Origin: a virus
Lineage: Duplodnaviria > Caudoviricetes
IMG/VR virus record: IMGVR_UViG_3300049928_000025
Coordinates: 1-63,150 of that record
Reading direction: 5' to 3' (one strand)
DNA: 63,150 nt
The notes beneath the pieces were generated by a model. The model was not told the origin of the DNA. It was given only the letters and a program-made list of their open reading frames with translations, and did no database searches. A program made the translations under genes and the position numbers. Shown here in pieces: positions 2,010-16,506 of this stretch (position 1 is the stretch's first letter; every line of letters starts with the position of its first letter).

Positions 2010-2416
2010 GCCGCGCCCTGGTCATCCTCCGCTCCCCGTCCGATCGCGAGCGCGTCCAGCGCTGGGCCCACGGGTGCTCACCCGGCACCCGCGTCGAGTT
2101 CAAGGGGCCGAAGCGCAGCTTGCCCCAGAACGACCGCATGTGGGCCATGCTCACCGACATCGCGTCGCAGAAAGAGCACTGCGGCCGGCGCTACACGCCC
2201 GATCAGTGGAAGGTGCTGTTCATGCACGCCTGCGGGCGTGAGGTGCAGTTCATCCCAGCGCTCGACGGCAGCACATTCATTCCATGGGGCCAGTCGTCGT
2301 CCGACCTGTCCAAGGACGAGATGACGGCGTTGATCGATTTCATGTTCGCGTGGGGCGCGCAGAACGGCGTCATCTTTGCGGATGAGCGTGCTCCTCTCGT
2401 TGGCGAGGTCGCGTGA
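2006..2416 (+). CDS. ninB: NinB/Orf family recombination protein
   Basis: KRSLPQNDRMWAMLTDIA...SSSDLSKDEMTALIDFMFAWGA. Confidence 0.9.
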   Translation: MSRALVILRSPSDRERVQRWAHGCSPGTRVEFKGPKRSLPQNDRMWAMLTDIASQKEHCGRRYTPDQWKVLFMHACGREVQFIPALDGSTFIPWGQSSSDLSKDEMTALIDFMFAWGAQNGVIFADERAPLVGEVA

Positions 2417-2661
2417 TGCTCTGGTGCCTCGCTCTCCGCCAGGGCTACGCCATCGGCGACTGCACGCCGATCGCCGTCGGCAGCCTCGAGCGCGTCATGC
2501 GCGCCGCCGACGAGCGGTATCACGTCCTCGACGCCCAGGAGCACCCGGACGGTCGGCTCTACGGTGGCCGCTGGCGGCGAGGCGAGGACGGCAGGCCACT
2601 GCCCTACGTGATCGTACCGCTCGCCATGCTGCCGGCCGACAGGCGGGGAGCCGGGGCATGA
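2413..2661 (+). CDS. Hypothetical protein
   Basis: Coupled ORF. Confidence 0.55.
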   Translation: MMLWCLALRQGYAIGDCTPIAVGSLERVMRAADERYHVLDAQEHPDGRLYGGRWRRGEDGRPLPYVIVPLAMLPADRRGAGA

Positions 2662-3062
2662 CCGATCCTCGCCCCCGGCTGTCGGACAGGGACCGTAAGC
2701 GCCTGTTCCGGCTGCACGGCCGGACCTGCCACATCTGCAGCCAGCCGATCGACGGCGTGCATGAGGCCTGGGACGTCGAACACGTCATCCCGCGGAGCCT
2801 GATCGGCCGACACGCCGACACCGACGAGAATATGAAGCCGGCGCACAAGGCGTGCCACCGGGAAAAGTCCAAGGACGATGCCAACAACCTCGCCGAGGCG
2901 AACCGCCGCGAGGACCGGCACATCGGCGCCCATCAGGCGCGGCAGCCCGTGCCGCCCGGCAAGCCGCTGCCGCCCGGTCGGCCCGCCAAGCGCGCCACCG
3001 CGCCCCTGTCGAAACAGCCTCTACCCCGCCGAGCCCTCTACACACCGGAGCATCGCCGATGA
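2658..3062 (+). CDS. HNH endonuclease
   Basis: CHIC...EHVIP...NMKPAHKACHREK. Confidence 0.85.
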   Translation: MTDPRPRLSDRDRKRLFRLHGRTCHICSQPIDGVHEAWDVEHVIPRSLIGRHADTDENMKPAHKACHREKSKDDANNLAEANRREDRHIGAHQARQPVPPGKPLPPGRPAKRATAPLSKQPLPRRALYTPEHRR

Positions 3063-3452: not shown

Positions 3453-3704
3453 ATGCGCCGCATCCGCCCGCAGAAGTTCGCCGGATCCGACTACCGCCAG
3501 ATCTGGCGCATCGTCGATGGCGCCGTGGCTCAGGCCTTCAACGATCATCCCGAATACCTCGCCCCCGGAGCCCGCGTCAGGACGGTGCGCAACAGCATCG
3601 TCAAGCGCGTGGCGGGGGCGGTTACCGGCCACGCCGCTCAGTCGGCGCGGGTCCGTTCCGAGGCAAGCAACCCGGCGGACGCAACGGGAGAGGGCCATTG
3701 CTAG
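3453..3704 (+). CDS. Hypothetical protein
   Basis: GAGGAG RBS upstream. Confidence 0.65.
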   Translation: MRRIRPQKFAGSDYRQIWRIVDGAVAQAFNDHPEYLAPGARVRTVRNSIVKRVAGAVTGHAAQSARVRSEASNPADATGEGHC

Positions 3705-3823
3705 GGCTCGCTCAGGGCGCTGCCCCCACAGCCCCCTCGGCTGTCGCCATTCACGGCAGCCTCGCGGGAGGGATGGCAGTCCCTCCCGCACCAACCAATC
3801 TCCGCCAGCCAGAGGAGCCCGTC

Positions 3824-4222
3824 ATGAGCAGCCTGAAGGTTGTCGACTTTCTCAAGGAGATCGACACCCTCCGCGAGGCCGTGCGCCGCTACGAGGAATT
3901 GCTGAAGCCGTCGCTCTACACGCCGCGCGCCTGGCGCCTGACGCCCAACGAGGAGGCCGTCCTCCTGGTGCTCTACGGCGCCAAGACCCGCGTCGTGCAC
4001 CGCGAACGGATGCCGATCGGCGTCTACGGCATCCTGGCCGACGCGCCCGAGCAGAAGATCCTCGACGTCTTCATCTGCAAAGTCCGGCGGAAGCTCATGT
4101 GCGCTCAGACCCGGATCGGCATCGAGACCGTATGGGGCCGTGGCTGGCGGCTCACCGATGAGAGCCACGCCCGTCTGCACGCCGCGGTCGCCGGTGAGCC
4201 GATCGCGGAGCGGGCAGCATGA
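3824..4222 (+). CDS. OmpR/PhoB-type winged-helix protein, CtrA-like DNA-binding domain without receiver domain
   Basis: PEQKILDVFICKVRRKL...IETVWGRGW closely parallels the CtrA C-terminal domain. Confidence 0.85.
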   Translation: MSSLKVVDFLKEIDTLREAVRRYEELLKPSLYTPRAWRLTPNEEAVLLVLYGAKTRVVHRERMPIGVYGILADAPEQKILDVFICKVRRKLMCAQTRIGIETVWGRGWRLTDESHARLHAAVAGEPIAERAA

Positions 4223-4327
4223 GCGCGCCCCTCCCGCCTCGCAGAGGCCTCTACAGCTCGGAGACGGGACGATGAGCACTCCCGTGTCTCAGATCTCTAG
4301 CGGAGGGGCTGGGGGATGGAAAGATTA

Positions 4328-4413
4328 GGGCGCGACCCTAAAGGGTCAGGCTCTCGCCCTTCGGGATAAACCACTTCGTGTTTTGTCGGCTTCGCCGCTT
4401 CGATCCTTCGCGC
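4328..4413 (-). repeat. Four-hairpin dispersed element, left copy L1
   Basis: GGGCGC-hp-CAGGCT-hp-AAACC-hp-GTTTT-hp-GCTTCGATCCTTCGCGC. Confidence 0.8.
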
Positions 4414-4428
4414 ATACGGAGACTTGAG

Positions 4429-4812
4429 ATGAGCGATAAGACCAAGGTCCAAATTATAGTAAGCGGCCCGGTCGGTTGCGGCAAAAGTGCGATCGTAGAA
4501 GAAATCGCGGTAGCGCTCAAAGCCATCGGCATAGAAGTCAGCTTTGCGGACCCGCGAGCTGTACAGAGCGAGCGCAACATGGTTGGTGACCACATCGGAT
4601 CTCTTGAAATCTATCGCAAAGGCATCCGTGTCGAGATCTCGGAGAGTCTGTTTATTCAGAGCCAAATCGAACAGCGAATTGGCGGCGCTTACGAGATGCC
4701 AGACCGGCCTGGGTTCTGGGTCGACGCGCCAGTCGCCAAAGAGATTGCTCGCCGCGTTCTCGGGGTTGCGCCTTCTTCGAACGATCGCCTGAAGCGGGGC
4801 GCATCAGGATAA
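4429..4812 (+). CDS. Hypothetical protein with P-loop-like motif (cargo between L1 and R1)
   Basis: GPVGCGKS motif; GGAG RBS; visibly AT-richer than flanks. Confidence 0.65.
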   Translation: MSDKTKVQIIVSGPVGCGKSAIVEEIAVALKAIGIEVSFADPRAVQSERNMVGDHIGSLEIYRKGIRVEISESLFIQSQIEQRIGGAYEMPDRPGFWVDAPVAKEIARRVLGVAPSSNDRLKRGASG

Positions 4813-4816
4813 GCAC

Positions 4817-4900
4817 CGCGCCAGCGACCAAAGCCCGGAGGGCCGAGACCAAAGGGCTCGGGTCGAAGACCGCGGGCGCGGTCGACGAAGTCGAGGCGCC
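4817..4900 (+). repeat. Four-hairpin dispersed element, right copy R1
   Basis: CGCGCCAGCGACCAAAGC-hp-GAGAC-hp-GGCTCG-hp-GCGCGGT-hp-GGCGCC. Confidence 0.8.
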
Positions 4901-4966
4901 GCAAAGGTAAGTCTATCCCTCCAACTGACCCCCACCCCAATGCCGGCAACGCCGGGAGAATTGAGC

Positions 4967-5623
4967 ATGAGCGAGCACAAGATCATCGAGGCCGCCGACA
5001 CGCCGATGAGCATCGGGCTGGGCGACCTCGCCCTCACGATTTCATGGCCGGACGGCTCAGAGACCGTCGAGCACGTCTCGGAGCAAGCCGCGAAGCTGCT
5101 CGGCTACCAGCGTCCGGATCCCGAACCCCCAGCCCCGCCCGCCTGGATGGTCGAGGTGGCGCGGGAGGCTGCTGACGGATACGGGAACGGAATTGTAGCG
5201 GTGGCTGAGCGCGCCATCGAACTCGCCCTTGAGCGCGGGCATGTGGTGGAGCCGCGACCGGTCCCGACCGACGAGGAGTTGCTGAAGGCGGCGCGGGAGG
5301 ATGCGGCGCAGGTCAACGAGCGTCGCGGATACGAGACCATCCCGAATGAGTGCCGGCGCGGTTTCCGCGATGGAACGGGCGACGTTCAGTGCGCCCTCCA
5401 GGCCCGCCGCAACATGCTGCGGGAGGGGGCTGTGGCAGCCTCGGCGGTCCCGTCGGCAGATTATGAAGCCGCCCTGAGGCAGGCATGGGACGCGGGCCGC
5501 TCCTGGGCTCGAATGAGGGCGCGAGAGGCCGTCGACAATGCGGTGACTCATGAGGCCGGCCGCTCCGATCGTGACCTGCGCGTCTCCGCTCTCCTCGCCA
5601 CCCTGCCGACCCGGGAGGCCTGA
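4967..5623 (+). CDS. Hypothetical protein
   Basis: GGGAG RBS, long ORF. Confidence 0.7.
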   Translation: MSEHKIIEAADTPMSIGLGDLALTISWPDGSETVEHVSEQAAKLLGYQRPDPEPPAPPAWMVEVAREAADGYGNGIVAVAERAIELALERGHVVEPRPVPTDEELLKAAREDAAQVNERRGYETIPNECRRGFRDGTGDVQCALQARRNMLREGAVAASAVPSADYEAALRQAWDAGRSWARMRAREAVDNAVTHEAGRSDRDLRVSALLATLPTREA

Positions 5624-5625
5624 CC

Positions 5626-5958
5626 GTGACAGCGTATGCCTTCAGCCCGCTTCGCGAGTATCAGGATTGGCGCGTCTTCAAGTATTCGCTGATGATGGCG
5701 GACACGCAGTTTGTCGTCATGCCTGAGACGAGCGAGATCCTGTCGGTCCAATTCCAGGGCGAGCAACTCGTGATGTGGGCGGCGGTCTGTGCAGACCGGC
5801 CGACGATCAAGCAGAAGATCGTCATCGCTGGCACCGGACATCCGACCGATCTCCGTGGCCTGAGGTTTGTCGGAACCGCACAGGATCCTACGGCGCCGCT
5901 CGTTTGGCACGTCTTCGCGGGCGAAGTCCGTGCCAATTCCGCCGGAACGGAGGCCTGA
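5626..5958 (+). CDS. Conserved phage protein
   Basis: ILSVQ..GTGH..VGT.Q..LVWHVF pattern recurrent in phage accessory genes. Confidence 0.7.
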   Translation: MTAYAFSPLREYQDWRVFKYSLMMADTQFVVMPETSEILSVQFQGEQLVMWAAVCADRPTIKQKIVIAGTGHPTDLRGLRFVGTAQDPTAPLVWHVFAGEVRANSAGTEA

Positions 5959-5961
5959 GCC

Positions 5962-6924
5962 ATGGCCGAGATCGTTCGCCACAAGAAGACCGGCGGCCTG
6001 TACGATGTGCTGTATCGGGGTGCTACGGTCGAGAGCAGCGTGCCCTTGGCGGATTACGCTGAGGTTATCATCTGCCGGCCCGTTTCGGATAGTGGGATCG
6101 TCATCCGACCCGCCAGACTTCCAGTGCCTACCAACCGTATCGCCCTGTACGGGGCCAGTGTCCAGACCGCCGTGCCACTCACCAACGGCGACGAGGTGGT
6201 GGTCTACCGCACCCAGGACGAAGATCTCCTCGTCTGGGTCCGCCCGACCTCCGAGATGGACGACGGGCGGTTCGAGCCCGCTAATCCCCTCGGCGCACCC
6301 CCTCATGCAAGCGCCTCCGAAATAGAGGAGCGTGCAGCTGTCGTTCGACGCGGGCTGTCGTCCGTGGCCAATCATGCACCGCCTGGCTCCACCACCGCGG
6401 TCTGGGCTGCGCGCGGCGTGGGCGTGATCGACGCTCTCCTCTCCCGTATCAGCCCCAGCCCGTTGGGGGATGCTGTAGGGCGCGGTCCTGCGGACCCGGG
6501 CTCTCGTGCAAGCATCGAGCCTGCTGGCGCAGTCTCGCCCGCCTCCGGTGGCGTCGATCCCTCGCGCGAAGCGTGGCTTGATTTTGAGCCGGATGAGATC
6601 GTTCGGCGCGTTCGCTGTCAGGCCGACGATGCGCCGGATGAAGGCGACAGCCCCGCCCAGATCTGGCGGCATGCCTGCGATACGATTTTGCTGCGCATGG
6701 GTAGGCACCCATCACAGGAGGCGGTGGCCAGCGGCGGCGAGGCGCCCGGCGGTGTGATCCCTGAGGGATGGGTTCTCGTGCCTCAGGAGCCGACTGAGGC
6801 GATGCTGGACGCCGCCGTGAAGGGTAGCGGTGCCGATGTCAGCTACGCCGATGTCGAGGAGCTGTGGCCCGCCATGCTCTCAGCCTCCCCGCGTCCCTCC
6901 CAGGGGGAGACGGGCGATGCGTAG
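5962..6924 (+). CDS. Mosaic protein: DUF1653-like N-terminus, in-frame L/R cassette, PEGWVLVP..PT..ML C-terminal module
   Basis: RHKKTGGLY...VVYR...WVRP..EM.DGRF; element at 6478-6568 is read through in frame. Confidence 0.7.
   Translation: MAEIVRHKKTGGLYDVLYRGATVESSVPLADYAEVIICRPVSDSGIVIRPARLPVPTNRIALYGASVQTAVPLTNGDEVVVYRTQDEDLLVWVRPTSEMDDGRFEPANPLGAPPHASASEIEERAAVVRRGLSSVANHAPPGSTTAVWAARGVGVIDALLSRISPSPLGDAVGRGPADPGSRASIEPAGAVSPASGGVDPSREAWLDFEPDEIVRRVRCQADDAPDEGDSPAQIWRHACDTILLRMGRHPSQEAVASGGEAPGGVIPEGWVLVPQEPTEAMLDAAVKGSGADVSYADVEELWPAMLSASPRPSQGETGDA
6478..6568 (-). repeat. Four-hairpin dispersed element, left copy L2
   Basis: GGGCGC-hp-CCGGGCT-hp-CGAGCC-hp-GTCTC-hp-GCGTCGATCCCTCGCGCG. 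Confidence 0.85.
6721..6747 (+). repeat. Truncated right element R2 (outer arm only)
   Basis: GCGGT-hp-GAGGCGCCC. Confidence 0.5.
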
Positions 6925-7171
6925 GCCGACAAAAGCCCAGCGAGCCGTGCTCGAATTCATGGGCGCACACCAAGATGCGCTTCGCTGCGACCCGCGCCTC
7001 CGGCCCGCATGGTGGCTGGAGGCGGGACCGACCGTCCGGGCTCAGGTCGCCGACAGCATCGTCGCCGCTGGGTGGTCCGAACGCACTGGCGAGGCCGGCC
7101 CACAGCAGTTCTTCACGCGGACGGAAGCCGGCCGCACCGCCCTCGCCAGAGAGGAGATGGGTTGTGAGTGA
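6917..7171 (+). CDS. Hypothetical protein, possible winged helix
   Basis: GGGGGAG RBS; coupled ORF. Confidence 0.6.
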   Translation: MRRPTKAQRAVLEFMGAHQDALRCDPRLRPAWWLEAGPTVRAQVADSIVAAGWSERTGEAGPQQFFTRTEAGRTALAREEMGCE

Positions 7172-7544
7172 ACGCCTGACCGAGTCGGAAATCGCAACGA
7201 TCGTAGATGTGCCCGACCATGCCGGGCGAGCCCTGCGACCCGAGAGCTACCCGCTCCTATCGGACTATGAGATGGACACGGTAATCCCGGCTAAGGACGG
7301 CCGTCCGTGGCGCAAGGCCTGCGCGGATTGCGCGTTCCGGAGCCACGACCCTCAAGGGTTCGGGCGCGGCTACCAGGACATGATCCGTTACTCGGATCCT
7401 CAACGGGATGGGCTGTTCTACTGCACGCACCGGACCGACGCGGGCGAGCACCGGATCTGTGCCTGCTACGCGGCCTGTCGGCATGGTGAGCACGGTAGTG
7501 GAGAGCGCGCCTCGCTCCAGCTCGAGGTTCCCGATGTGCTCTGA
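7164..7544 (+). CDS. Cys/His-rich hypothetical protein
   Basis: CADCAFR...FYCTH...CACY. Confidence 0.65.
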   Translation: MSERLTESEIATIVDVPDHAGRALRPESYPLLSDYEMDTVIPAKDGRPWRKACADCAFRSHDPQGFGRGYQDMIRYSDPQRDGLFYCTHRTDAGEHRICACYAACRHGEHGSGERASLQLEVPDVL

Positions 7545-8385
7545 TCACACAGGATCCGGAGGGGATCGGATGGGCGCTGCCCCTGACGAGGTCGGGCTCT
7601 CGCAAGTCGAGCCGCTGCGCGTCTCGCCGCCTGACGGCGCTTCGATCCCTAGCGCGACACCTATCGCCCGTCGCGTCATATCCTTCGGCAGCCCGGCTGT
7701 GGTGTGCTGCGATGCTCAGTGCTCCAAAGCTTGGGGCATTAACAGTCGCCCGAAGATTGTTCTTAGCGACGATCCTGATGACATCGCCTATCTCGCCGAT
7801 AGTGAGCTGGACGAGGCGCCGGCTAATCCTGGCACCTACGAAGGCGGATGTGCGAAGCCATACACCACGGCCGAGCGCCTAAACAAGTGGTGCGTGCGGG
7901 AATGCGAGCGGTCGTCAATGTCAAAGACTGGACGCAACGACGAGGTCGTCGAGGCGCCAGATTTCAGTCGCCGTCGCTACAACATGCCGTGGCTGCACCC
8001 CGAGCAGCCCGCGCCATGCGATGGAAGCGGCGAAGCCGGCGAGACCGAAGGGCTCGATCCGAAGGACGACAGCGCGGTGCCCGCAGGGCAGGCGCCCGAC
8101 GCCCTCTCCTCCCTGAGGGGTGAGATCGACAGGCTGAAGGAACGGCTCGCGGAGGCCGTATCCGCGGGTCGCATGCTGATTGTCGCTGAGGATGCGCGCT
8201 GGGTCGCCATAGCCGCTTTCAATGCGGCATGGGATGAGCAGCCGGCCCCTCCTACGAAGAAGCAAGTGTCAGCCGAACGGGCCGCAATCCTGGGCACCGA
8301 TATCGCGCACCAAAGAGCCCTTCGGCGGGCGCTTGAGGCTATTCGATCCATCGCCACCCAGGAGACCCCCGATGTCGAGGGCTGA
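7534..8385 (+). CDS. Mosaic protein containing an in-frame L3-cargo-R3 cassette (start uncertain)
   Basis: Open frame through both elements; Cys-rich cargo CCDAQCSKAWGINSRP...NKWCVRECER. Confidence 0.65.
   Translation: MCSDHTGSGGDRMGAAPDEVGLSQVEPLRVSPPDGASIPSATPIARRVISFGSPAVVCCDAQCSKAWGINSRPKIVLSDDPDDIAYLADSELDEAPANPGTYEGGCAKPYTTAERLNKWCVRECERSSMSKTGRNDEVVEAPDFSRRRYNMPWLHPEQPAPCDGSGEAGETEGLDPKDDSAVPAGQAPDALSSLRGEIDRLKERLAEAVSAGRMLIVAEDARWVAIAAFNAAWDEQPAPPTKKQVSAERAAILGTDIAHQRALRRALEAIRSIATQETPDVEG
7572..7656 (-). repeat. Four-hairpin dispersed element, left copy L3
   Basis: GGGCGC-hp-TCGGGCT-hp-CGAGCC-hp-GTCTC-hp-GCTTCGATCCCTAGCGCG. Confidence 0.85.
8010..8097 (+). repeat. Four-hairpin dispersed element, right copy R3
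   Basis: CGCGCCATGCGATGGAAGC-hp-GAGAC-hp-GGCTCG-hp-AGCGCGGT-hp-GGCGCCC. Confidence 0.85.
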
Positions 8386-8767
8386 CGATCTGCGCGCGCT
8401 GCTGGCGATGGTAAATGACGCCAAGGCCAGTAGCTGGGAACTAGATCAGCGCCTCTTTGCGCTCGGCTGGGGCTGGTCGTTCCCGCTCCATGGGGCGTCT
8501 CTCTGTGAGTTCAAGAGAATTAGGCGCGAGGGACTGGGCAATTTCTCATCGTCGGTGGATGCGGCGTACAATCTGATCGACCGTCTGCTGCCCGGCTGGG
8601 CATGGGCGGTCGCTGTCTCGAATGGACGATTTCGAGCAAGTCTGACTGCCCCTAATCCACTTCGACCCATGCCCGTCATCGCGAGGGACTGTGCCACAGG
8701 TGGCCTAGTTTTGTGCGCCGCCCTCCTATCCGCTCTCATCGCGCAGGAGGCCGAGAATGGCCGGTGA
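8372..8767 (+). CDS. Hypothetical protein
   Basis: AGGAG RBS; FSSSVDAA..L..RLLPGW pattern common in phages. Confidence 0.7.
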   Translation: MSRADDLRALLAMVNDAKASSWELDQRLFALGWGWSFPLHGASLCEFKRIRREGLGNFSSSVDAAYNLIDRLLPGWAWAVAVSNGRFRASLTAPNPLRPMPVIARDCATGGLVLCAALLSALIAQEAENGR

Positions 8768-9263
8768 ATACGATCGCGTCTTAGCCGAAGCGCAGACGGA
8801 CGCAATGAACCTCGCGCATCGGCTGTTCAGCAATACGTTGCCGTCTGTCCACTGGCGCGACCTGAAGGCCATCGCGGACGCATACTATGCGCCCGTCTGC
8901 CGGCAGCACATTGAGGCCGAGCGCCGTGCCACAGACGCGGAAAAAGAGCTCGTCGATCTGACCTGGCAGCGCCGTCGAGCCCAAGAGGAAGCGGATCGGT
9001 GGCGCCGGATCGCGGAGCGCTTAGAAACCGAGAAGCAGGATGAGCGCGAGGCGTGCGCTGCAATCTGCGACGAGCGGGCCAAATACTTCGATCAGGCGCC
9101 CGCGCATCGGGATTGGACAGACGCCGCCCGGAGCTACCGCGCGACCGCTAAAGACATCAGAAGTCGGTCCTGGAAGGCCGCGGCAATCGCCGCCATCCCA
9201 CCTCAACCGCAGGAGGCCGATCGCCCTGCCCAGACCCTGAAGAGCGGGGAGGGGCGGTCGTGA
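8757..9263 (+). CDS. Hypothetical protein
   Basis: AGGAGG RBS; EREACAAICD module. Confidence 0.7.
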   Translation: MAGEYDRVLAEAQTDAMNLAHRLFSNTLPSVHWRDLKAIADAYYAPVCRQHIEAERRATDAEKELVDLTWQRRRAQEEADRWRRIAERLETEKQDEREACAAICDERAKYFDQAPAHRDWTDAARSYRATAKDIRSRSWKAAAIAAIPPQPQEADRPAQTLKSGEGRS

Positions 9264-9793
9264 GCGCAATCATCTCCCCCTGCGGCCTCTACCGCACGCG
9301 GCTCGACCGCGACATGGGTTTCCTCGACGGCGAGCCGGTCATCGGTTGGATGCTGCACAACCCCAGCACCGCCGACGCCGAACTGAACGACCCAACGGCT
9401 CGGCGTGGCATCGCGTTCACACGTCGCGAGGGCGGCCGGCGCATGATTTTCATGAACCCGTGGGCCGGGCGGGCGACGAGCCCCGCCGATCTGTGGCGGA
9501 TGGCCGACCCTGTCGGCTCGACCAACGATGAGGCGATCCGCGCGGCGCTAGACGAGATCAGGGCGAGCGGCGGATTTGTCGTCGCGGCCTGGGGGCGGGT
9601 CAATCCGCCAGCGGCGCTGCGGGCGCAGGCCCGGCGCCGACTCGACGATGTCTGCGAGATGATCCATGCGGCCGGCGTGCCCCTGTTTTGCCTCGGCACC
9701 AACGCGGACGGCTCGCCCAAGCACCCACTCTACGTCAGGAGCGACGCCCCGCTGATCCCCTGGCCGCACCAGACCCCGGAGTCCTCCCCATGA
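9260..9793 (+). CDS. DUF1643 family protein
   Basis: SPCGLYR..NPSTADA..DPT..AAWG..GSPKHPLY. Confidence 0.9.
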   Translation: MSAIISPCGLYRTRLDRDMGFLDGEPVIGWMLHNPSTADAELNDPTARRGIAFTRREGGRRMIFMNPWAGRATSPADLWRMADPVGSTNDEAIRAALDEIRASGGFVVAAWGRVNPPAALRAQARRRLDDVCEMIHAAGVPLFCLGTNADGSPKHPLYVRSDAPLIPWPHQTPESSP

Positions 9794-10017
9794 CCGCTGA
9801 CACCGAGAGGGCAGGGCTGGCGGTCATCCTCGCCGGCCTCGAACAGCCCGACCCCGAGATGATCAAGGCGGCCTGGGCCACATGGCTCGCTCGGGACAGC
9901 CGCAAGCTCGGCCCTGGCCCCGCATTCGTCGAGGCGATCACGGCCGCGAACCGGGTGCTGCTCTCCCGAGCCCGTGCCTCCGGTATCCCGGTCGATGAGG
10001 TGGGAGGTGGATCATGA
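9790..10017 (+). CDS. Hypothetical protein
   Basis: ATGA coupling. Confidence 0.6.
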   Translation: MTADTERAGLAVILAGLEQPDPEMIKAAWATWLARDSRKLGPGPAFVEAITAANRVLLSRARASGIPVDEVGGGS

Positions 10018-10361
10018 CGCATAGGTTTCCGCCTCTACGAATGGCGATCATTGACCTGTGGGGCCAGACCGAAAGCGAGTGCGGGATCTGCGAGGCGTGG
10101 GGGGCACACCGCCATGCGGTCGGCTGGTACTGCGGCCCCGTCAAAGAGGGTATCGGAGAGCCCGTTCCTGAGTGGGGGCCGGACGCAGTCGCCGGCGGTC
10201 GGACGGTCTGCAAGGCGTGCCATGATCGTTTCTGTGGCACGGCCGACGCCGTGATTTCGACCTTGATGGGCCAACTCGCCGACCCCGCTCCCCCGCCCCG
10301 GTCGCCACAGCCACGGATGAGGAGGGTAGAAGATGACGTGGACACGAAAGCCGGCCATTGA
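10014..10361 (+). CDS. Hypothetical Zn-finger-like protein
   Basis: CGIC, CKAC; GGAGG RBS. Confidence 0.6.
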   Translation: MTHRFPPLRMAIIDLWGQTESECGICEAWGAHRHAVGWYCGPVKEGIGEPVPEWGPDAVAGGRTVCKACHDRFCGTADAVISTLMGQLADPAPPPRSPQPRMRRVEDDVDTKAGH

Positions 10362-10662
10362 GGGCCGCGGGCCGGTCTGCAATTGTTGTGGAGCAATCAC
10401 GACTACATTTTCCGCCGATGCTGTGATTGCGGTTGGTTTTGGATCCGCCTGCGTCACGCGAGATGGCGTAGCGGTCTACGACGAACAGCAGGCCCTCACT
10501 GAGCGCGAGCTATGGGACGGAGCCGACGCCGAGCGCGCCGCCGCAGCCGATCCAGATCACGACTGGCAAATCTGCAAGTTCGGGCCGCTGTCGTCGTCAG
10601 TCTATCAGCGCCACGGCGAAGGCCAATGGGTCCTAATCGAGCGTGGCGATGGCTTCGCCTAA
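10333..10662 (+). CDS. Hypothetical protein
   Basis: GGAGG RBS. Confidence 0.65.
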   Translation: MTWTRKPAIEGRGPVCNCCGAITTTFSADAVIAVGFGSACVTRDGVAVYDEQQALTERELWDGADAERAAAADPDHDWQICKFGPLSSSVYQRHGEGQWVLIERGDGFA

Positions 10663-10714
10663 CCTCACCCCACAGTTGCCAGATGACAACGGTCAAGCTG
10701 AAAGGAGATGAAGC

Positions 10715-10984
10715 GTGAGTAGGGAGCGTTTGTACCCGCCGGATTGGCTCGACACCGACACGGCGGCTTACATGGTCAGCATGTCTGTCGACACCTTCAA
10801 CCGGCGGGTGGGGGACGGCACTCTTCCGAAGCCCGTCACGGTAGGCGGCAAGCGGCTCTGGCATCGCGCCAAGCTGAGCGAGGCGCTAGAACGCAAGGAC
10901 CCGGCGTTCCTCGACGCTGACGATCCGATCATGAGAGAGCTGCGTGGGAAGACGAAGGACCGCCGTCGTGGCCTTGCCGCCTGA
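10715..10984 (+). CDS. xis: Excisionase / AlpA-like HTH protein
   Basis: AAYMVSMSVDTF..V.DG.LPKP...GGKRLW; overlaps integrase start. Confidence 0.8.
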   Translation: MSRERLYPPDWLDTDTAAYMVSMSVDTFNRRVGDGTLPKPVTVGGKRLWHRAKLSEALERKDPAFLDADDPIMRELRGKTKDRRRGLAA

Positions 10985-11993
10985 GGTGCATCGCGTCGTA
11001 GCGCGGGGGAAGCCATATTATTACTGGCACCCCGGCCGCGGCACTTCGCACGCGATCGACAAGCCGGTTCGGCTGCCGGACGCCGAGACCGAAACACGAA
11101 AGTTCTGGCAGGAAATTGAGCGCCTGGGCGGCAAGCCCGAGTTCGATGAGAAGTCCGTGGCCGCGATGCTGACCAAGTATGAAGCCTCTGAACAGTTCGA
11201 GGCTCTGTCGGCCGCTACACGCAAAGACTACAAGCGGTATGTGGAATTCTGGACGAAGCACCTAGGCAAGTTTGGCGCCGCCGACATCCGAGCCTCGCAC
11301 ATTCTGCACGTTCGAGACGAAGAATATGCCGGCAAACTATCAACCGGCAACCATTCAGTTGCGGTTCTGTCAGCCGCCTACAAGTGGGGCATCCCACGCG
11401 ACTATGCTGCCAACAATCCGGCGTCAGCAGTGCCAAAATCCAAGATCGACAGCGATGGCCGGTTACCATGGCCGCCGTGGGCGCTTGAGATCGCGCACAA
11501 GCACTTCCGGCCAGAGTTGCGTCGCGCCGTGGCGCTCGGACTCTACACGGGCCAACGCCTCGGCGACGTGCTGCGAATGCACCGCGACCACATCCAGGGC
11601 GGAGCCATTCACGTCACTCAGTCCAAAACGGGGAAGGATCTAGCCATCCCGATCCATGTCGCCCTGCGGCCCGAGATCGAAGCTTTCCTGGCCGGCAAGC
11701 ACAACTTTCTCGTCTGCCGAGCCGATGACCGCCCACTGACCTCGCAGGATTTTCAGGCGATGTGGTCGCGCGAGATGGCGAAGAAACCTCAAGAGCGGAT
11801 TAAGCAGGAGGGGTTCAGCTTCCACGGGCTGCGCACGCTGGCTGTCGCGTCGCTCGCCGCGACCGGGAACAACCCCATCCAGATCGCCGCCATCACCGGC
11901 CAATCGCTCAATATAGTGGAGCACTACCTGAAGGAGCACCGCCAGATCGAGCTGGCCTCGCAGGCCATAAAGGCGTGGGAAACGGCGGTCTGA
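10944..11993 (+). CDS. int: Tyrosine integrase
   Basis: YYYW arm-binding N-terminus; TGQRLGD (R), QSKTG (K), FHGLR, HY. Confidence 0.95.
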   Translation: MGRRRTAVVALPPEVHRVVARGKPYYYWHPGRGTSHAIDKPVRLPDAETETRKFWQEIERLGGKPEFDEKSVAAMLTKYEASEQFEALSAATRKDYKRYVEFWTKHLGKFGAADIRASHILHVRDEEYAGKLSTGNHSVAVLSAAYKWGIPRDYAANNPASAVPKSKIDSDGRLPWPPWALEIAHKHFRPELRRAVALGLYTGQRLGDVLRMHRDHIQGGAIHVTQSKTGKDLAIPIHVALRPEIEAFLAGKHNFLVCRADDRPLTSQDFQAMWSREMAKKPQERIKQEGFSFHGLRTLAVASLAATGNNPIQIAAITGQSLNIVEHYLKEHRQIELASQAIKAWETAV

Positions 11994-11995
11994 GC

Positions 11996-12179
11996 GTTTT
12001 ACAAAAAAGCGCTTTGTTCCGGGTCTGATCCGGGGTACGCTGAAAACCAAGTTGCAAGGAAATCAGTCGCTTAGGAGGGAAACGGCTGTTCTACCGTTAA
12101 ACTATCCCCCACCAAGTCCTTGTTAGATAAGGACTTTCGGTCAGTCCGTTTTGCAAATCCCTGAGGTTTTACAAATCCC
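11996..12179. other. attP region: core matches the 5' end of a tRNA (Gln-like) on - strand; arm-type repeats
   Basis: Minus strand 12111-12085 TGGGGGATAGTTTAACGGTAGAACAGC; GTTTTRCAAA at 11996, 12148, 12166; IHF-like AATCAGTCGCTTA at 12061; inverted repeat 12114-12136. Confidence 0.75.
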
Positions 12180-12265
12180 GCTTTGTGCGCGGTCCGTTCC
12201 GACGCCGATGCGTATGCCCGCATTCGCTCCGGAACGCAAGCGCCGATGTGCGAGAAGGAGGAGAG

Positions 12266-13048
12266 ATGCCTGCTGTCACCGTCGCGCGGTCAGCCGAGAA
12301 AGAGGCGCTGCTATTCGAGAGCAAGGTCGTGCCGGAGCCGAACACGGGCTGCTGGCTGTGGACTGGAGGCCTGGACCGCGACGGCTACGGCCACATGCAT
12401 ATTCGTTTGGGTGAGGCGTGGACCACAACGCCAGCGCATCGCGGCATGTGGCAGTTGCGGCACGGACCAATGCCCGCCGACCTCATGGCGTGCCACTCCT
12501 GCGACACGCCTTGCTGTGTGAACCCCGACCACGTGTGGCCAGGAACCGCTGAGCAGAACAACGCTGATTGCCAGCGTAAGGGGCGGAAAAGGTCACGCCC
12601 ACGCAACCCGTGCAAGCTGCATATCAAGCGGATCACCGTGGCAGATGCCGAAGCCGCCGGTCGCGACCCTTCGTTCCCCGAAGAGCGGGCCCGACGCCTG
12701 TTGATGCGGGCCTACAAGCGCCGTGACCCGGTTTGGCGCGAGGCTCATATCGCCAGAGTTATGGCGAGCCGAACCGCCACGCGGCACGATCCAATCGATG
12801 CCCAGACGGAGGCCGAGAAACGGGCGATGATCGCCGGCTACGGCATGGCAGTCGCAATCTTGATGCGGCTGCGCGATGAGCCTGTCATCGCGGCCGACCT
12901 CATCATCGAAAGTGGGTTCGGTTTGGCCGACTTCCGTGCCAGTGGCCTCGAGGCCTACGACCTCAATCCGCTTGAGAAGCTGTACCGCAGCGAGCGCCGC
13001 CTCCGTAGGCGTTCTCCCGCCTCCTCCAATAGGGGAGGGCCGGTGTGA
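12266..13048 (+). CDS. HNH (Zn-binding loop type) endonuclease fused to unknown domain
   Basis: GCWLWTG..GYG..AHR..CHSCDTPCCVNPDH..GT...N..D. Confidence 0.8.
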   Translation: MPAVTVARSAEKEALLFESKVVPEPNTGCWLWTGGLDRDGYGHMHIRLGEAWTTTPAHRGMWQLRHGPMPADLMACHSCDTPCCVNPDHVWPGTAEQNNADCQRKGRKRSRPRNPCKLHIKRITVADAEAAGRDPSFPEERARRLLMRAYKRRDPVWREAHIARVMASRTATRHDPIDAQTEAEKRAMIAGYGMAVAILMRLRDEPVIAADLIIESGFGLADFRASGLEAYDLNPLEKLYRSERRLRRRSPASSNRGGPV

Positions 13049-13368
13049 TGGACGAGCCGCACGACTGGCAAGCACACCTTGCCGAGGTCAGAAAAATCCT
13101 TGAGAGCCACGGATACCATCCTGCGGCTTGGGAGGTTCGGGACGCGGCTGCCGAGATCGCCCGCCTGCGGGCTCATGTGGGCGATCTGGAGGCTGAGAAT
13201 GCACGACTTCTCGGCATGATCGACCGCATGGCCGCAGCGGCCAACGAACTTGTCTCGGCCGCGCGCTCGCACTGCCCGAAAGACCGGCGGTTCAGCTCGG
13301 CGTGGAAGCGGATGCGTGGCGCAATCCCAGTCCAAATCGTGGGCTCTGAGGCCGGAGACCAGCCATGA
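13045..13368 (+). CDS. Hypothetical coiled-coil protein
   Basis: Coupled ORF; AAAEIARLRA module. Confidence 0.65.
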   Translation: MMDEPHDWQAHLAEVRKILESHGYHPAAWEVRDAAAEIARLRAHVGDLEAENARLLGMIDRMAAAANELVSAARSHCPKDRRFSSAWKRMRGAIPVQIVGSEAGDQP

Positions 13369-13991
13369 CCGACCTCCCCGCCCGCCTCCGCACCGATGCC
13401 GCGGGCCTCGATCGCCTGGCAGCAAGATACCGCTCAACCGGGATAGACCGCGATGGTGCTGAACTCGGCGAGCGAGCCGGCCTCATGCGAGCTGCTGCCG
13501 ATGAGATTGAGAGGCTGCGCGGGATGGCGCTGCCGGCCGTTGCGCGTCACGGCCATCCCGATAGCGATCCCTCGCGCATGCCTGACTGGTACGATACCGC
13601 TCGGCAAACGAACGCGGCGCTCACGCTGAAGGGCGGCATCCACGAGGCCGATGTCGGCTTTGATTGTATACTGAGCCTGAATGATGTCGGGCTGAAGGTG
13701 CTTCGGCGAGCGTTAGAGCGGGCCTTCATGGAAGGCCAGGAGCATGCCCGCGCCAGCGCGGTTGACGAAGTCGAGGCGCCCGACCTTGAGGTCACAGAAC
13801 AGATCTGTCTCGACAAGCTGAAGCAGGAGAGGGATGCGTACAAGGATGCGTTGAGACCATTTGCGAGGGAGGCTGAGAGGATCGCTCGCGAGTGGCCCAG
13901 CATGACTGGCCCTGACGTGCAATGGCAGATCAAGTTTCGTCACCTGGATCGCGCCCGCGCCCTCCTATCCCAATCCTCTGAAGGGAAATGA
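13365..13991 (+). CDS. Mosaic protein with in-frame degenerate L4-cargo-R4 cassette
   Basis: AADEIERLR and ERDAYKDALRPFA modules separated by an element-flanked insert. Confidence 0.65.
   Translation: MTDLPARLRTDAAGLDRLAARYRSTGIDRDGAELGERAGLMRAAADEIERLRGMALPAVARHGHPDSDPSRMPDWYDTARQTNAALTLKGGIHEADVGFDCILSLNDVGLKVLRRALERAFMEGQEHARASAVDEVEAPDLEVTEQICLDKLKQERDAYKDALRPFAREAERIAREWPSMTGPDVQWQIKFRHLDRARALLSQSSEGK
13526..13577 (-). repeat. Degenerate left element L4
   Basis: GGCGC...GCGATCCCTCGCGC end, as in L2. Confidence 0.55.
13749..13781 (+). repeat. Internally deleted right element R4
   Basis: GCGCGGTTGACGAAGTCGAGGCGCC differs by one base from the end of R1. Confidence 0.7.
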
Positions 13992-13995
13992 TGCC

Positions 13996-14241
13996 ATGGG
14001 CCTCACGCCTCTGCACATCCTGATCGCCATTCACTACCACTGCCACGTAGAGCAGCACCCCATGCTACACAACCAAGTCCACCGGGATTACGCCGAGGAT
14101 CTCGCGGAGTGTGGGCTACTTCGAGCCGCCGGCCGCCATGACGATGCAACAGCAGCATACGAGAAAACAGATGCCCTCGCCGTCTTCGTCGAGGCCCTGT
14201 GCTCCACCCCATTTCCAGTTCATAAGTGGGTGATGCCATGA
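13996..14241 (+). CDS. Hypothetical protein
   Basis: Coupled ORF. Confidence 0.6.
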   Translation: MGLTPLHILIAIHYHCHVEQHPMLHNQVHRDYAEDLAECGLLRAAGRHDDATAAYEKTDALAVFVEALCSTPFPVHKWVMP

Positions 14242-14348
14242 TGCCTCCGTGGGTTCTGGTCGCTGGCTTACTGTGTTTCGTCGGTCTGATCGGATGGGCA
14301 ACTATCCTCGCCGTCAAGATGGCCAAGGATGATCGCGATGCTTTCTGA
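14238..14348 (+). CDS. 36-aa membrane peptide
   Basis: MMPPWVLVAGLLCFVGLIGWATILAVK...; ATGA overlap. Confidence 0.55.
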   Translation: MMPPWVLVAGLLCFVGLIGWATILAVKMAKDDRDAF

Positions 14349-14415
14349 CGTCGTATTCTATTCGGCGCTCGCCTTCCTTGCGAGCCTACCGGTCGCCGTG
14401 TGGTCGGTTCGATGA
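14338..14415 (+). CDS. 25-aa membrane peptide
   Basis: MLSDVVFYSALAFLASLPVAVWSVR; overlaps both neighbours. Confidence 0.45.
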   Translation: MLSDVVFYSALAFLASLPVAVWSVR

Positions 14416-14564
14416 CTTGGCTTGCGGGCATCGGCCTCCTGCTCGGTTTCGCCCTGATGGTCTGGTCGTGGCATGATGTGAGATTGCCCGACTGGACAGC
14501 GGGCCTTGGCTTTCTCGTCGGCGCTGTAGGGGGCGGAGTCTTCCTGAGCCAGGTGCTCTCATAG
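14412..14564 (+). CDS. 50-aa two-TM peptide
   Basis: MTWLAGIGLLLGFALMVWSW...GLGFLVGAVGGGVFLS; ATGA overlap. Confidence 0.55.
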   Translation: MTWLAGIGLLLGFALMVWSWHDVRLPDWTAGLGFLVGAVGGGVFLSQVLS

Positions 14565-14566
14565 CG

Positions 14567-14621
14567 GGGCGCATCCGGCTTTACCGGACCGCTGGTCGCG
14601 CGGCGCGAGCCCGGTTCCCTG
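14567..14621 (-). repeat. Degenerate left element L5
   Basis: GGGCGC-hp(CCGG/CCGG)-ACCGC..-CGAGCC..CCCTGA. Confidence 0.55.
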
Positions 14622-14677
14622 AAATACGGCGACTGACACGACTTGCACAACATACGCTTATAGAGCATGATGGCATC

Positions 14678-14881
14678 ATGCAGAATAAACTTAAAGACCA
14701 GCGCATCCCCGTCATGATGACCGCCTCCGAGGTGAAGGCGATCGACGACTGGATGTTCGCGAACCGCCTTCGCTCCCGCAGCGAGGCCATCCGGCAGCTT
14801 GTGGCTCAGAGCCTGAAGGGCATACCTGCGTCAGGGATCGAAGCGGCCTCTGGCCGGCAGGACGCGACAACGGAGCGGTAG
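14678..14881 (+). CDS. Ribbon-helix-helix regulator
   Basis: RIPVMM..SEVKAIDDW.F.NR..SRSEAIRQLV. Confidence 0.85.
   Translation: MQNKLKDQRIPVMMTASEVKAIDDWMFANRLRSRSEAIRQLVAQSLKGIPASGIEAASGRQDATTER
14828..14863 (+). repeat. Partial right element (inner arm) inside RHH gene
   Basis: GCGTCAGGGATCGAAGC-hp, reverse complement of the L inner end. Confidence 0.65.
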
Positions 14882-14882
14882 G

Positions 14883-15164
14883 ATGACAGCCGAAGAGATT
14901 GCTGAAGGGTTTGGCCCTGAGCGCCCAGATTGCCTGCTGCCATGTCCATTCTGCGGCGGCGGGCAGTACCAAGGGAGGCCAACTCATTTGCCGCCCCGCA
15001 TGGAAGGGCCGGGCGCCCTGATCACCTTCACGATCTTGCATTGGTGCGAGGGGGCAGCGTGGGGAACTGTTGCGTCGACGCGGCAGGTACGGGCGCGCGA
15101 AGTCGGGCCGGCCGTTGCGGAGTGGAACAGGAGGCCCGCGTCAGGGATAGTCGCCGAAGGCTGA
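14883..15164 (+). CDS. Lar-like (restriction alleviation family) Zn-ribbon protein
   Basis: LLPCPFCGG...A..WNRR. Confidence 0.65.
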   Translation: MTAEEIAEGFGPERPDCLLPCPFCGGGQYQGRPTHLPPRMEGPGALITFTILHWCEGAAWGTVASTRQVRAREVGPAVAEWNRRPASGIVAEG

Positions 15165-15223
15165 GACGCCGTAGGCGGCTCGGGCTCTGCCGACTAGCCC
15201 GGCCCCGGGACGGGGCGACGCCC
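15137..15223 (+). repeat. Four-hairpin dispersed element, right copy R5
   Basis: CGCGTCAGGGAT-hp-GAGAC-hp-GGCTCG-hp-AGCCCGG-hp-ACGCCC. Confidence 0.85.
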
Positions 15224-15241
15224 CGATGCTACACCCCGCCC

Positions 15242-15607
15242 ATGAGCATCCCACCCACCGCCCTCACCTGGTCCCGCGGTCTCGCCAGCCTCTCTCCCGG
15301 CGTCGTCCCGTGCCGCGGTCTCCGCGAAGAGGAATGGCGCGAGACGCACCGCCGCTGCAGCGAGTTCGTCGAGCGCTGGGGGATCCAGGCGCACGAGGCC
15401 GGGTGGGACACGCTGCGCCTCTTTGGCGTTGGGCCGGTCACCGGCACGCTCCGCGGCGATTTCTGCGGGATCCTGATCCCATGCTCGGTCGACGTCCACG
15501 AGGTCACGGCCGAGTGGATCAGGCTGGGGCGGTGGACGGCGTATCGGCGCGAGCCGGTGAAGATGCCCGGCATGGTGGCGGTGTGGGAGGTCGGGAAGGG
15601 CGGTTGA
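15242..15607 (+). CDS. Hypothetical protein
   Basis: F..RWG.QA..AGW..L.LFGV pattern; good codon usage. Confidence 0.65.
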   Translation: MSIPPTALTWSRGLASLSPGVVPCRGLREEEWRETHRRCSEFVERWGIQAHEAGWDTLRLFGVGPVTGTLRGDFCGILIPCSVDVHEVTAEWIRLGRWTAYRREPVKMPGMVAVWEVGKGG

Positions 15608-15634
15608 CTGGCGCACTCATTGAGTACATATTAT
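15604..15634 (+). promoter_or_regulatory. Sigma70-like promoter with palindromic operator
   Basis: TTGACT-17-CATATT; ACTCA-T-TGAGT at 15615-15625 in the spacer. Confidence 0.7.
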
Positions 15635-15691
15635 CTCCATCAGCCGACGTGCTGACGGGCGCCTCGCCGGAGCAGGGGCGGAGACGGGCTC

Positions 15692-16003
15692 ATGACCTAC
15701 TACGTGACGATCGCCGAGCGCCTCGACCGTGGCCATGCCCAGGCCAACGCCACGATCCGGCAGGAGGCCGCCTTCGCCGCGTCCGGCCGCGAGGTGCCGG
15801 CCACGGGATCGCTGGGCACCACCACCAGCAGCGGACAGACGTGGGCCCGCGCCGCGCTCGGCGGCTTCCCGACCGTGGCAGCGGCCCGCAAGGCCGCCCG
15901 CGCCTCGATCCGGAACCGGGGCTTCCGCCCGCGGCGCATGGAGGAGGTCATGGATTACGAGGCGGGCGAGGTCTTCGCCTACGCGATCGAAGGACGGCCG
16001 TGA
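15692..16003 (+). CDS. Small hypothetical protein (anti-defence candidate)
   Basis: First gene after promoter; GGAG RBS. Confidence 0.75.
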   Translation: MTYYVTIAERLDRGHAQANATIRQEAAFAASGREVPATGSLGTTTSSGQTWARAALGGFPTVAAARKAARASIRNRGFRPRRMEEVMDYEAGEVFAYAIEGRP

Positions 16004-16506
16004 TGGCGACCTATGCCGAGACGCAGACCGTCATCGCCCGCGCGTGCCGGTGGGTCGAGGAGCACCCGCGCCGCGCCAAGGCCGTTCGCACCGATCTCGA
16101 CCTCATTCTGCTGATGGCCAATCTCAACGTCGGCCAGGCGAGTGCGGCCTCCCCGATCGGGCAGTTCATGGTGCGCGCCGCCCTCCGGTTGCCGCACAAC
16201 GAAGATCGGGCGCCGCTGGTCCTGCTGGCGGGCTTCCGTGCCGGGATGGACGACTCGGATCCGGTTCACACGGGCCTCAAGGACCTGAAGCGCGTCACGG
16301 AGGGCGACGCGGGCGGCCGGGTGCTGCATCGCCTGACCTACCAAGCCGGTCGCGCCGGGTGCCACCTGTATCAGCTCGGCAAGCTTTTGCATTGCCTCAC
16401 CGAAAACGACGGCGACGAGCGGCCGGATGGCGCGACCAGTTTCGTCTATGGCCTGCTCAGCCAGGCCTACCAGCACCGTTGGACCACGAACAGGGCGGCG
16501 TCCTGA
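16003..16506 (+). CDS. Hypothetical protein (anti-defence candidate)
   Basis: TGATG coupling on both sides. Confidence 0.7.
   Translation: MATYAETQTVIARACRWVEEHPRRAKAVRTDLDLILLMANLNVGQASAASPIGQFMVRAALRLPHNEDRAPLVLLAGFRAGMDDSDPVHTGLKDLKRVTEGDAGGRVLHRLTYQAGRAGCHLYQLGKLLHCLTENDGDERPDGATSFVYGLLSQAYQHRWTTNRAAS

Follow-up and report, generated by a model that had tools for sequence, protein, structure and literature searches.

What is the folded sequence of about 93 nucleotides (nt) that recurs in the early region of the virus record IMGVR_UViG_3300049928_000025, in part as inverted pairs around small genes, and what might it do for the genomes that carry it? The window analysed here is the whole of that record, a single contig of 63,150 bases. 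An earlier note, made from its letters, had picked out about 11 copies of a hairpin-rich repeat, ordered left (L) to right (R) around short stretches of cargo. The repeat belongs to a well-supported family of structured DNA with a fold that Rfam lacks, and its occurrences suggest a family of ~93-nt DNA elements of temperate phages and of integrative or conjugative islands of alpha- and beta-proteobacteria. It most likely acts as single-stranded DNA (ssDNA), and our tentative answer to the second part of the question is a signal that initiates synthesis, or is recognised, on a folded single strand.

Two covariance models were used: model R1, built from 21 copies, and model R2, built from 51 copies with a revised structure (neither to be confused with the copies of the same names below). 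With filters off, model R2 finds six full copies in the window at 49.7-74.1 bits (E 1e-8 to 4e-14); model R1 finds the same six, and the best model R2 match after them has only 17.8 bits (E 0.1). Hence six of the claimed copies stand as full copies, whereas the five that had been called degenerate or partial are much weaker or recognisable by eye only. Scores below are those of model R2 unless model R1 is named.

4323-4416, plus strand: full copy L1, intergenic; 70.3 bits, E 3e-13.
4815-4906, minus strand: full copy R1, B-type, starting 2 nt past the stop codon of cargo 1; 65.6 bits.
6473-6570, plus strand: full copy L2, within the open frame 5962-6924; 74.1 bits.
7567-7658, plus strand: full copy L3, beginning at an open frame's ATG and read through; 69.1 bits.
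8008-8102, minus strand: full copy R2, B-type, translated in frame, the frame continuing into a coiled segment at the C-terminus; 63.8 bits.
15135-15228, minus strand: full copy R3; 49.7 bits, E 1e-8.
6721-6775, minus strand: possible truncated remnant limited to the outer strand of P1, H1 and the first part of P2a; by eye, reported by neither model.
13526-13590, plus strand: degenerate, shortened copy with P1, one hairpin and the 3' tail by eye; 12.2 bits, E 1.6 at 13461-13580.
13747-13786, minus strand: internally deleted B-type copy retaining P1, H1 and the start of P2a; 16.2 bits, E 0.22.
14567-14630, plus strand: degenerate copy in an intergenic gap, its 5' half recognisable; by eye only, reported by neither model.
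14825-14931, minus strand: weak copy; model R1 24.2 bits, E 0.005; model R2 14.1 bits, E 0.61.

Copy R3 overlaps the end of the open reading frame (ORF) 14883-15164 and ends 3 nt beyond the start of the next ORF (15226), and the internally deleted copy at 13747-13786 is identical to the 5' part of copy R1 in 24 of 25 bases. The layout first described, conserved linkers separating hairpins that vary yet stay paired, was right, as judged by the covariance model and by reading 4200-8200 and 13300-15400. So was the L to R order around 150-500 nt, the gaps of the two full pairs measuring 398 and 349 nt. A generic ungapped repeat finder did not detect the family in the window and a 12-mer motif count was uninformative (13 matches against 8.65 expected), because insertions and deletions in the arms hide it. 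The copies are 57-77% G+C and their consensus has no A+T-rich stretch; ARAGORN returned no transfer or transfer-messenger RNA gene in the window.

Each copy is self-contained, folding into six helices and two junctions. P1, of 5 base pairs (bp), closes a three-way junction with H1 and P2a, and P2a in turn closes a four-way junction with H2, P3 (capped by H3) and H4. P2a is formed by the linker that follows H1 and by the 3' tail, as GGGCUC with GAUCCC in the common A-type when read as in L, and as GCGCUG-like with CAUCGC-like sequences in the B-type, a C.U mismatch being kept in both. P3 pairs CGAG with CUCG after H3, and occurs also as GGAG/CUCC, CAAG/CUUG, CUGAG/CUCAG and AAAC/GUUU; copy L1, which has a stop in the usual reading frame, has both P3 strands altered and their pairing kept. 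In an alignment of 51 copies from 33 sources, fitted to a model lacking P2a and P3, pairing within the six helices holds in 95.6% of 1133 cells, compared with 76.2% in column shuffles, and both bases have changed in 18 of the 23 pairs. Covariation scores 0.462; shuffles score 0.132, none of 500 reaching the observed value, and displacing the partners by 1-3 columns leaves 0.075 at most. The proposal of a structured element under selection for pairing is thus borne out. Its support lies in the comparison between copies and not in thermodynamics, because single-sequence energies are indistinct from those of shuffles (z -2.1 to +2.0 for RNA folding). A first RNAalifold consensus, pairing GGCU with AGCC and UCG with CGA, was dropped, those pairs never varying, and was replaced by the covarying P2a and P3.

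A direct test does not support the idea that L and R pair with each other into a long helix with a series of four-way junctions, the cargo forming its loop. In 11 L/R units, compared at five pair positions that vary, 101 of 108 cells find their complement inside their own copy, and L and R partners share the base that an L:R duplex requires in only 33 of 107 columns; the difference between A and B subtypes is likewise compensated inside each copy, not between partners. Separately, in several bacterial copies (loci L026, L042, L046, L084, L020 and L056) the 3' strand of P1 can also pair with sequence in the 10-20 nt that follow the element, as in GACGC..GCGTC, one variant of which is altered on both sides (GACGG..CCGTC); this could be an alternative hairpin or a dyad resembling a recombinase core site.

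Whether RNA or DNA is folded can be judged from what stems and loops tolerate. Among 1086 stem cells, a count that excludes one conserved G.U position in H2, 1027 are Watson-Crick, and the remainder comprises 15 G.U, 13 A.C and 31 further mismatches. A selected RNA usually accepts G.U much more readily than A.C; here G.U is no commoner than A.C, and the same holds among bacterial copies that occur only in the sense direction. Triloops cap 132 of the 189 arms and, read as in L, 105 of them are TNC (91 closed by C-G) and one is GNA, while the 47 tetraloops include 17 TNNC and no TTCG. The bias is present in both classes, with TNC against GNA at 40 to 0 in B-type or antisense copies and 65 to 1 in all others; the complementary strand therefore carries C-GNA-G and GNNA mini-hairpins. 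According to the accessible parts of two sources, d(GNA) and GNNA loops closed by C-G form very stable DNA mini-hairpins (PMC13037366, PMC3201870), known from the G4 complementary-strand origin, from ssiA of RSF1010 and from N4 early promoters (PMC13037366). With DNA parameters, the complement strand folds better by 0.9-3.3 kcal/mol in all six copies tested; its minimum-energy fold returns at least the P1 closing stem in at least three of the six (7572-7656, 8010-8097 and L026), and all six helices in L026. Because its stems are Watson-Crick only and its loops strand-biased, the element, as far as sequence comparison can tell, most likely acts as ssDNA rather than RNA, folding on the complement of the L strand. 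The earlier note's premise of a single-stranded nucleic acid gains support from these two features, which disfavour its suggestion of an RNA-processing signal.

The family extends well beyond the window. Among loci found with a search pattern of three linkers, a copy is present in 18 of 19 from viral contigs (E <=1e-11) and in 34 of 75 from bacterial contigs representing one genome per species (E <=1e-7); one viral locus, L003, A+T-rich and without the 5' half, was dropped by eye. The bacterial hosts are mainly Alphaproteobacteria (Azospirillum and other Rhodospirillales, Caulobacterales-like metagenome-assembled genomes, Bradyrhizobium, Sphingobium and Hyphomicrobiaceae), with a few Betaproteobacteria. 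Fifteen whole viral records have 1-5 matches each, and five bacterial genomes have 1, 2, 3, 4 and 8. Under stricter filters, an even sample of the class gave a match in only 12 of 151 genomes, and the element is therefore accessory and patchy rather than housekeeping. The element has no counterpart in Rfam 15, which gave no match at gathering scores in the window and none in six bacterial loci with copies; up to E 10 over 4200-8300, the only match was an unrelated riboswitch of 19.6 bits at 7009-7109. Megablast of 4000-16000 against phage records gave no match, and blastn of one Azospirillum-type copy against plasmids gave a single 78.6% match without annotation. No description of the element was found in open-access literature, in the text of which a sequence motif cannot be searched.

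In phages the copies are arranged in pairs. Neighbouring copies, defined as those no more than 1000 nt apart in the window, the 15 viral records and loci L001, L085 and L161, form 20 pairs, of which 15 are convergent (5' ends outward), four tandem and one divergent; an earlier tally of 14 convergent pairs in 18 has a nominal binomial P of 4e-6. Partners enclose 127-790 nt, holding single small genes that are unrelated between units, so that the description of inverted L and R copies bracketing diverse cargo applies in phages. At least 8 of 11 units combine an A-type sense copy with a B-type antisense copy, L014 and L012 being exceptions. Eleven of 13 units have a frame that stays open across the entire cargo, and in four units a ribosome-binding site (RBS) and ATG stand just upstream of L, with a stop following R in three of these four. 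In thirteen database proteins the same two repeat-encoded ends enclose middles that are unrelated, and protein P0006 joins the N-terminus of P0001 to the cargo of P0003. Copies are read in differing frames (L2 against L3 in the window; L161) and L1 and R1 are untranslated, and therefore the repeat-encoded peptides are a by-product. Among named homologues of one cargo gene, the nearest is from a Methylobacterium. The cargo genes of the two full pairs in the window are:

4429-4812, plus strand: cargo 1, a 127-amino-acid P-loop NTPase-like gene with its own RBS and stop; weak Pfam and PHROG P-loop matches, and no relatives in viral contigs.
7659-8007, plus strand: cargo 3, a Cys-rich small protein of a family that normally stands alone.

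Cargo 3 has 216 homologues, mostly of 105-135 amino acids, which start and stop exactly where L3 ends and copy R2 begins. In 48 of 49 viral loci with such a homologue the element is absent within 1.2 kb. The sole exception, L161, is the closest relative of cargo 3, and there an L/R pair (784-876 plus, 1064-1149 minus) brackets a different gene of 187 nt just upstream of the homologue. The L161 unit (700-1260) is flanked by a direct repeat of ~45 nt that comprises the end of the upstream ORF, an RBS and a GTG start. In the window, ORFs 5962-6924 and 7570-8385 look like separate small genes run together, since the repeats lack a stop in the frame that is read.

Bacterial copies are solo and intergenic, often 0-50 nt after the stop of a small upstream gene. 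The next downstream ORF lies on the element's strand in 14 of 19 annotated loci, and 12 of these 14 have Pfam names: ArdC (two), ParB_N (two), ParA/VirC1, DUF736, RelE, Ros/MucR, Peptidase_S26, patatin (two) and SIR2_2. Both of the ParB_N proteins are large and a third ParB_N is encoded by a second gene; DUF736 is followed by a RovC-like regulator, and RelE has a helix-turn-helix partner. To judge by their annotation, the downstream genes are those of integrative, conjugative or defence islands. One metagenome-assembled genome has three same-strand copies 1.1-1.6 kb apart, one of them ahead of the RelE/helix-turn-helix pair. Multi-kilobase conserved blocks surround bacterial copies and encode DUF736, RovC-like, ECF sigma/FecR and similar genes; an explanation of these blocks as ribosomal RNA spacers or intervening sequences was rejected, no ribosomal RNA having been found.

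Short of an even chance, but ahead of its rivals, we place the explanation that the element is an ssDNA initiation or recognition signal of the single-strand initiation (ssi) or hairpin-promoter kind. The fold would form when DNA is single-stranded, during transfer, in replication intermediates or upon extrusion, and the folded strand would keep single-strand binding protein off. Its reader would be a primase, an RNA polymerase or some other enzyme acting on DNA, and synthesis on the folded template would proceed into the adjacent gene. Such polarity into the gene would explain why solo copies precede genes in islands; in phages, one copy per strand would bracket one accessory gene, both pointing inward, and the initiation signal would double as a recombination joint. 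This class is favoured because it fits the loop chemistry, the polarity and the neighbouring anti-restriction and partition genes. If the element is indeed such a signal, no earlier one would have been described for G+C-rich alphaproteobacterial phages and islands, nor any common to phages and conjugative elements. Its covariance model would then be a handle for early and anti-defence gene sets, and the question would arise of when a temperate phage with double-stranded DNA (dsDNA) exposes single strands.

The closest functional likeness is with the ssi signals (the G4-type origin, and ssiA and ssiB of RSF1010), which the accessible text of one source describes as folded ssDNA of 40-140 nt with GNA- or GNNA-loop hairpins (PMC13037366); the hairpin of ssiA, CCGAAGG, has the same kind of loop as the element. 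Stable hairpins with such loops on one strand are what the copies present. According to the part of a second source available, ssiA and ssiB are inverted repeats on opposite strands (PMC8567376), a precedent for the inverted pair. Unlike ssi signals, which we compared by description and not by sequence, the element forms a closed junction of ~93 nt that has five arms and keeps its junction bases, and it occurs in many copies per genome at gene boundaries and not at an origin. It resembles Frpo in being structured DNA ahead of genes of anti-restriction or establishment, in several co-oriented copies with polarity into the genes, but Frpo is, in the accessible text of its description, a long hairpin of enterobacterial plasmids that rebuilds -35 and -10 boxes (PMC11541004).

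Several points weigh against a single-strand initiation signal. No stem rebuilding TTGACA or TATAAT boxes and no A+T-rich UP element was seen when the consensus was inspected, a check short of a formal promoter scan; without -35 and -10 boxes the element is therefore not Frpo-like. Entry as a single strand is not known for dsDNA phages, and extrusion or replication intermediates must therefore be assumed, while convergent initiation into a gene of 130-800 nt has no obvious benefit. Single-sequence DNA folding is not better than in shuffles for most copies (z -2.7 to +1.0). The copies are related, so that counts of loops and orientations are not independent events, and ORFs at bacterial loci were called by a crude rule based on third-position G+C. 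No primase gene was found among the window ORFs scanned with Pfam and PHROG, many of which have no family. The large unnamed ORFs 867-2009, 15226-16506 and 17591-18319 matched nothing in PHROG and Pfam scans, and a phage primase or recombinase partner may therefore hide there.

The main rival, which best explains the joints between genomes, is possible though clearly less probable: the element would be a recombination site for gene cassettes, its folded strand the substrate of a structure-specific recombinase by which L-cargo-R units are moved or swapped. Candidate enzymes are tyrosine recombinases, as for integron attC and Xer/pdif modules, or HUH enzymes, as for repetitive extragenic palindromic (REP) sequences with their REP-associated tyrosine transposases and for IS200/IS605 ends. 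Homology between related loci often ends at element edges. In Caulobacterales-like loci, seven pairwise alignments of up to 2 kb stop 0-8 nt from the element's 3' end, and copy L050 has lost the 3' strand of P1 exactly after its GAUCCCU tail. In Azospirillum-type loci, two pairs are homologous over the downstream block from a point 2-5 nt from the element's 5' end, and two further loci have the element alone in common. Two related phages differ at two slots with conserved flanks, each slot being occupied in one phage by an L-cargo-R gene and in the other by plain genes unrelated to it; one right-hand junction falls within R, in its outer part. Contigs from one metagenome that are identical to the window stop at 4891 and 4903, at the outer end of copy R1. 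These breaks imply no particular mechanism. They show a conserved sequence of ~90 nt behaving as a joint for the exchange of gene-sized modules between relatives. The diversity of the cargo, the usually naked state of the cargo 3 family, the chimaeric P0006 and the three same-strand copies in one assembled genome, which recall a cassette array, fit a recombination site as well.

Much, however, is at odds with it. Tyrosine recombinase genes are common in genomes with copies, but none is consistently adjacent: the nearest Phage_integrase lies 4-30 kb off on copy contigs of five bacterial genomes, and tblastn relatives of the window's own integrase occur in only two of the loci collected up to that search, L012 and L019, from near-identical records. 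Circles, inversions and strict empty sites were not observed and no link to a recombinase was found. Four units read by eye have no target duplications, and plain homologous recombination at any conserved 90-nt sequence could equally produce the breaks. In four DNA runs compared with 3500-16500 no joint fell at any L or R, although these runs are contigs, in which the absence of variants means little; RNA runs, which had small shares only, were left aside. The only clean joint in them is an in-frame skip of 132 nt (5157-5290) inside ORF 4940-5623, carried by a variant in one run that otherwise equals the window. In three metagenome runs, summed contig depth over 3934-4367, just upstream of L1, reaches 2-4 times the level of the adjacent bins, with contig matches beginning at 4040 and 4046, and this segment appears common to other, more abundant genomes.

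The attC sites of integrons are single imperfect hairpins with R''/L'' and L'/R' boxes and extrahelical bases, one per cassette, all in the same orientation beside intI. The element resembles them in conserving the structure and not the sequence of its arms, in placing a folded strand at a cassette boundary and in the diversity of its cargo. It differs in its conserved linkers, its five-armed fold of six helices, its inverted, two-ended arrangement (15 of 20 pairs convergent, against same-orientation arrays) and the lack of an adjacent integrase, a comparison that uses described attC features together with the lack of an Rfam match. PeSL cassettes of T4-type phages are similar in that short regulatory repeats with a stem-loop border small accessory ORFs and mark where close phages differ by insertion, deletion or replacement, but the accessible part of their description gives an early promoter plus stem-loop in direct orientation (PMC2839356), and the element is four times larger, in inverted pairs, with no promoter hexamers in its consensus. 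Were the recombination joint real, it would give an account at base-pair resolution of how gene-sized modules are swapped in these phages.

An ssi-type signal and a recombination site are not mutually exclusive. We regard as improbable, though, the joint proposal of a two-ended cassette system common to temperate phages and conjugative islands, in which single accessory genes would be enclosed by two inward-pointing folded-ssDNA signals that would both drive the gene's earliest expression or priming from ssDNA and serve as joints for its transfer between mobile elements; if true, it would amount to an integron-like economy without the integron. By analogy, the element would work most like ssi signals and have a genomic role most like that of attC or PeSL.

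An RNA-level cis element is unlikely. It would punctuate operons as a messenger RNA stabiliser, processing site, terminator or leader, in the manner of REP or a structured 5' leader. In its favour, copies lie between co-directional genes, often within 50 nt of a stop codon, L copies stand at gene starts in the sense direction, junction bases are conserved as in riboswitch-like RNAs and the G.U of H2 recurs in 33 of 47 cells in the L reading. Yet G.U is elsewhere no commoner than A.C, also where copies are sense-only; the arms are built symmetrically about loops of 3 nt, and UUCG is absent among the 47 tetraloops. The R copies, moreover, keep the linkers as complements, which a sequence-specific RNA reader could not use in the same transcript, and the distance to the downstream start ranges from ~30 to 500 nt. 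Over 4200-8300, Rfam offers no family for the element even when E is relaxed to 10. STAXI (RF01728) bears some likeness, being a structured motif of RNA or ssDNA near ssb, antirestriction and integrase genes and often multicopy, but is, in the available text of its report, a tandemly repeated pseudoknot of Enterobacteriales (PMC2864571), and the Rfam scans gave no match to the element.

Less likely again is a selfish miniature repeat, akin to miniature transposable elements with inverted repeats (MITEs) or REPs, spread by a transposase and merely tolerated, with inverted pairs persisting since direct pairs would delete the gene between them. Rickettsia palindromic elements insert into reading frames without stops, and they and REPs or bacterial interspersed mosaic elements are structured repeats found between genes or read in frame, although their hosts, sizes and sequences differ. 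Pairing around cargo is not known to be a feature of any of them. A selfish repeat would account for the patchy distribution (12 of 151 genomes, 1-8 copies per genome, 1-5 per phage record), for stop-free insertion into frames and for the remnants and internally deleted copies in the window. It sits poorly with junction bases and a loop type strongly conserved across alpha- and beta-proteobacterial hosts and their phages, which points to constrained function, with the fixed polarity relative to genes and with sense and antisense roles kept by A and B subtypes. Nor was the expected transposition apparatus found: the earlier observation that no transposase is adjacent stands, no autonomous partner encoding a transposase lies between the same ends in the loci examined (the largest cargo being 790 nt), and the terminal inverted repeat is limited to the 5-bp P1. 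Target duplications were not seen at the four units read by eye, although one unit, L161, is bracketed by the direct repeat of ~45 nt described above. The element also lacks the GTAG/CGTC head of REPs as given in the accessible text on them (PMC3733652). In sum, it is not a member of an Rfam family, nor attC, Frpo, PeSL or a tRNA-like gene, and probably not a classical MITE.

Very improbable, finally, is a protein-level module in which the repeats encode N- and C-terminal peptides (..GLSPSVEP..ASIP.. and ..ETEGLxPKDxSAV..) tagging small phage proteins, for although the 13 proteins with the same ends and unrelated middles, the open frames and the upstream start signals speak for it, the frames differ between copies, L1 and R1 are untranslated, bacterial copies are intergenic, the arms covary at the nucleotide level and the two 'tags' are reverse complements of each other.

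By its gene content the record is a temperate siphovirus-like genome. Pfam names in it include a tape-measure protein, portal, terminase large subunit, Mu-F-like head protein, Rha regulator, DNA methylase, tyrosine integrase and two HNH endonucleases. The element copies sit in the plus-strand early or accessory block, with a third-position G+C of 0.65-0.86, which is exceeded in the minus-strand structural block (0.81-0.94). Genes in or near the region of the copies are:

2376-3062 and 12185-13048: HNH endonuclease genes (Pfam), in or near the copy region.
10944-11993, plus strand: tyrosine integrase gene (Pfam Phage_integrase, 1.3e-13), between two groups of copies; given as context, no link to the element having been found.
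14678-14881, plus strand: small repressor-like gene (phrog_4738 transcriptional repressor, 2.9e-7), its 3' end entering the weak copy at 14825.

Three features elsewhere in the record deserve mention. A 15-nt unit in ~10 tandem copies occupies 1-180 (repeat families D1/D2) and could be a coding pentapeptide repeat or an artefact of the record's end. An ORF of 966 amino acids at 49999-52899 (minus strand) combines a portal domain, an Acb1 domain directed against the cyclic-oligonucleotide-based antiphage signalling system (CBASS) and an ADP-ribosyltransferase domain; on the basis of these domains it may be a counter-defence fusion delivered with the head. ORFs 34021-34425 and 36430-36834 (plus strand), of 134 amino acids each, have identical codon-position composition figures and may be a duplicated gene.

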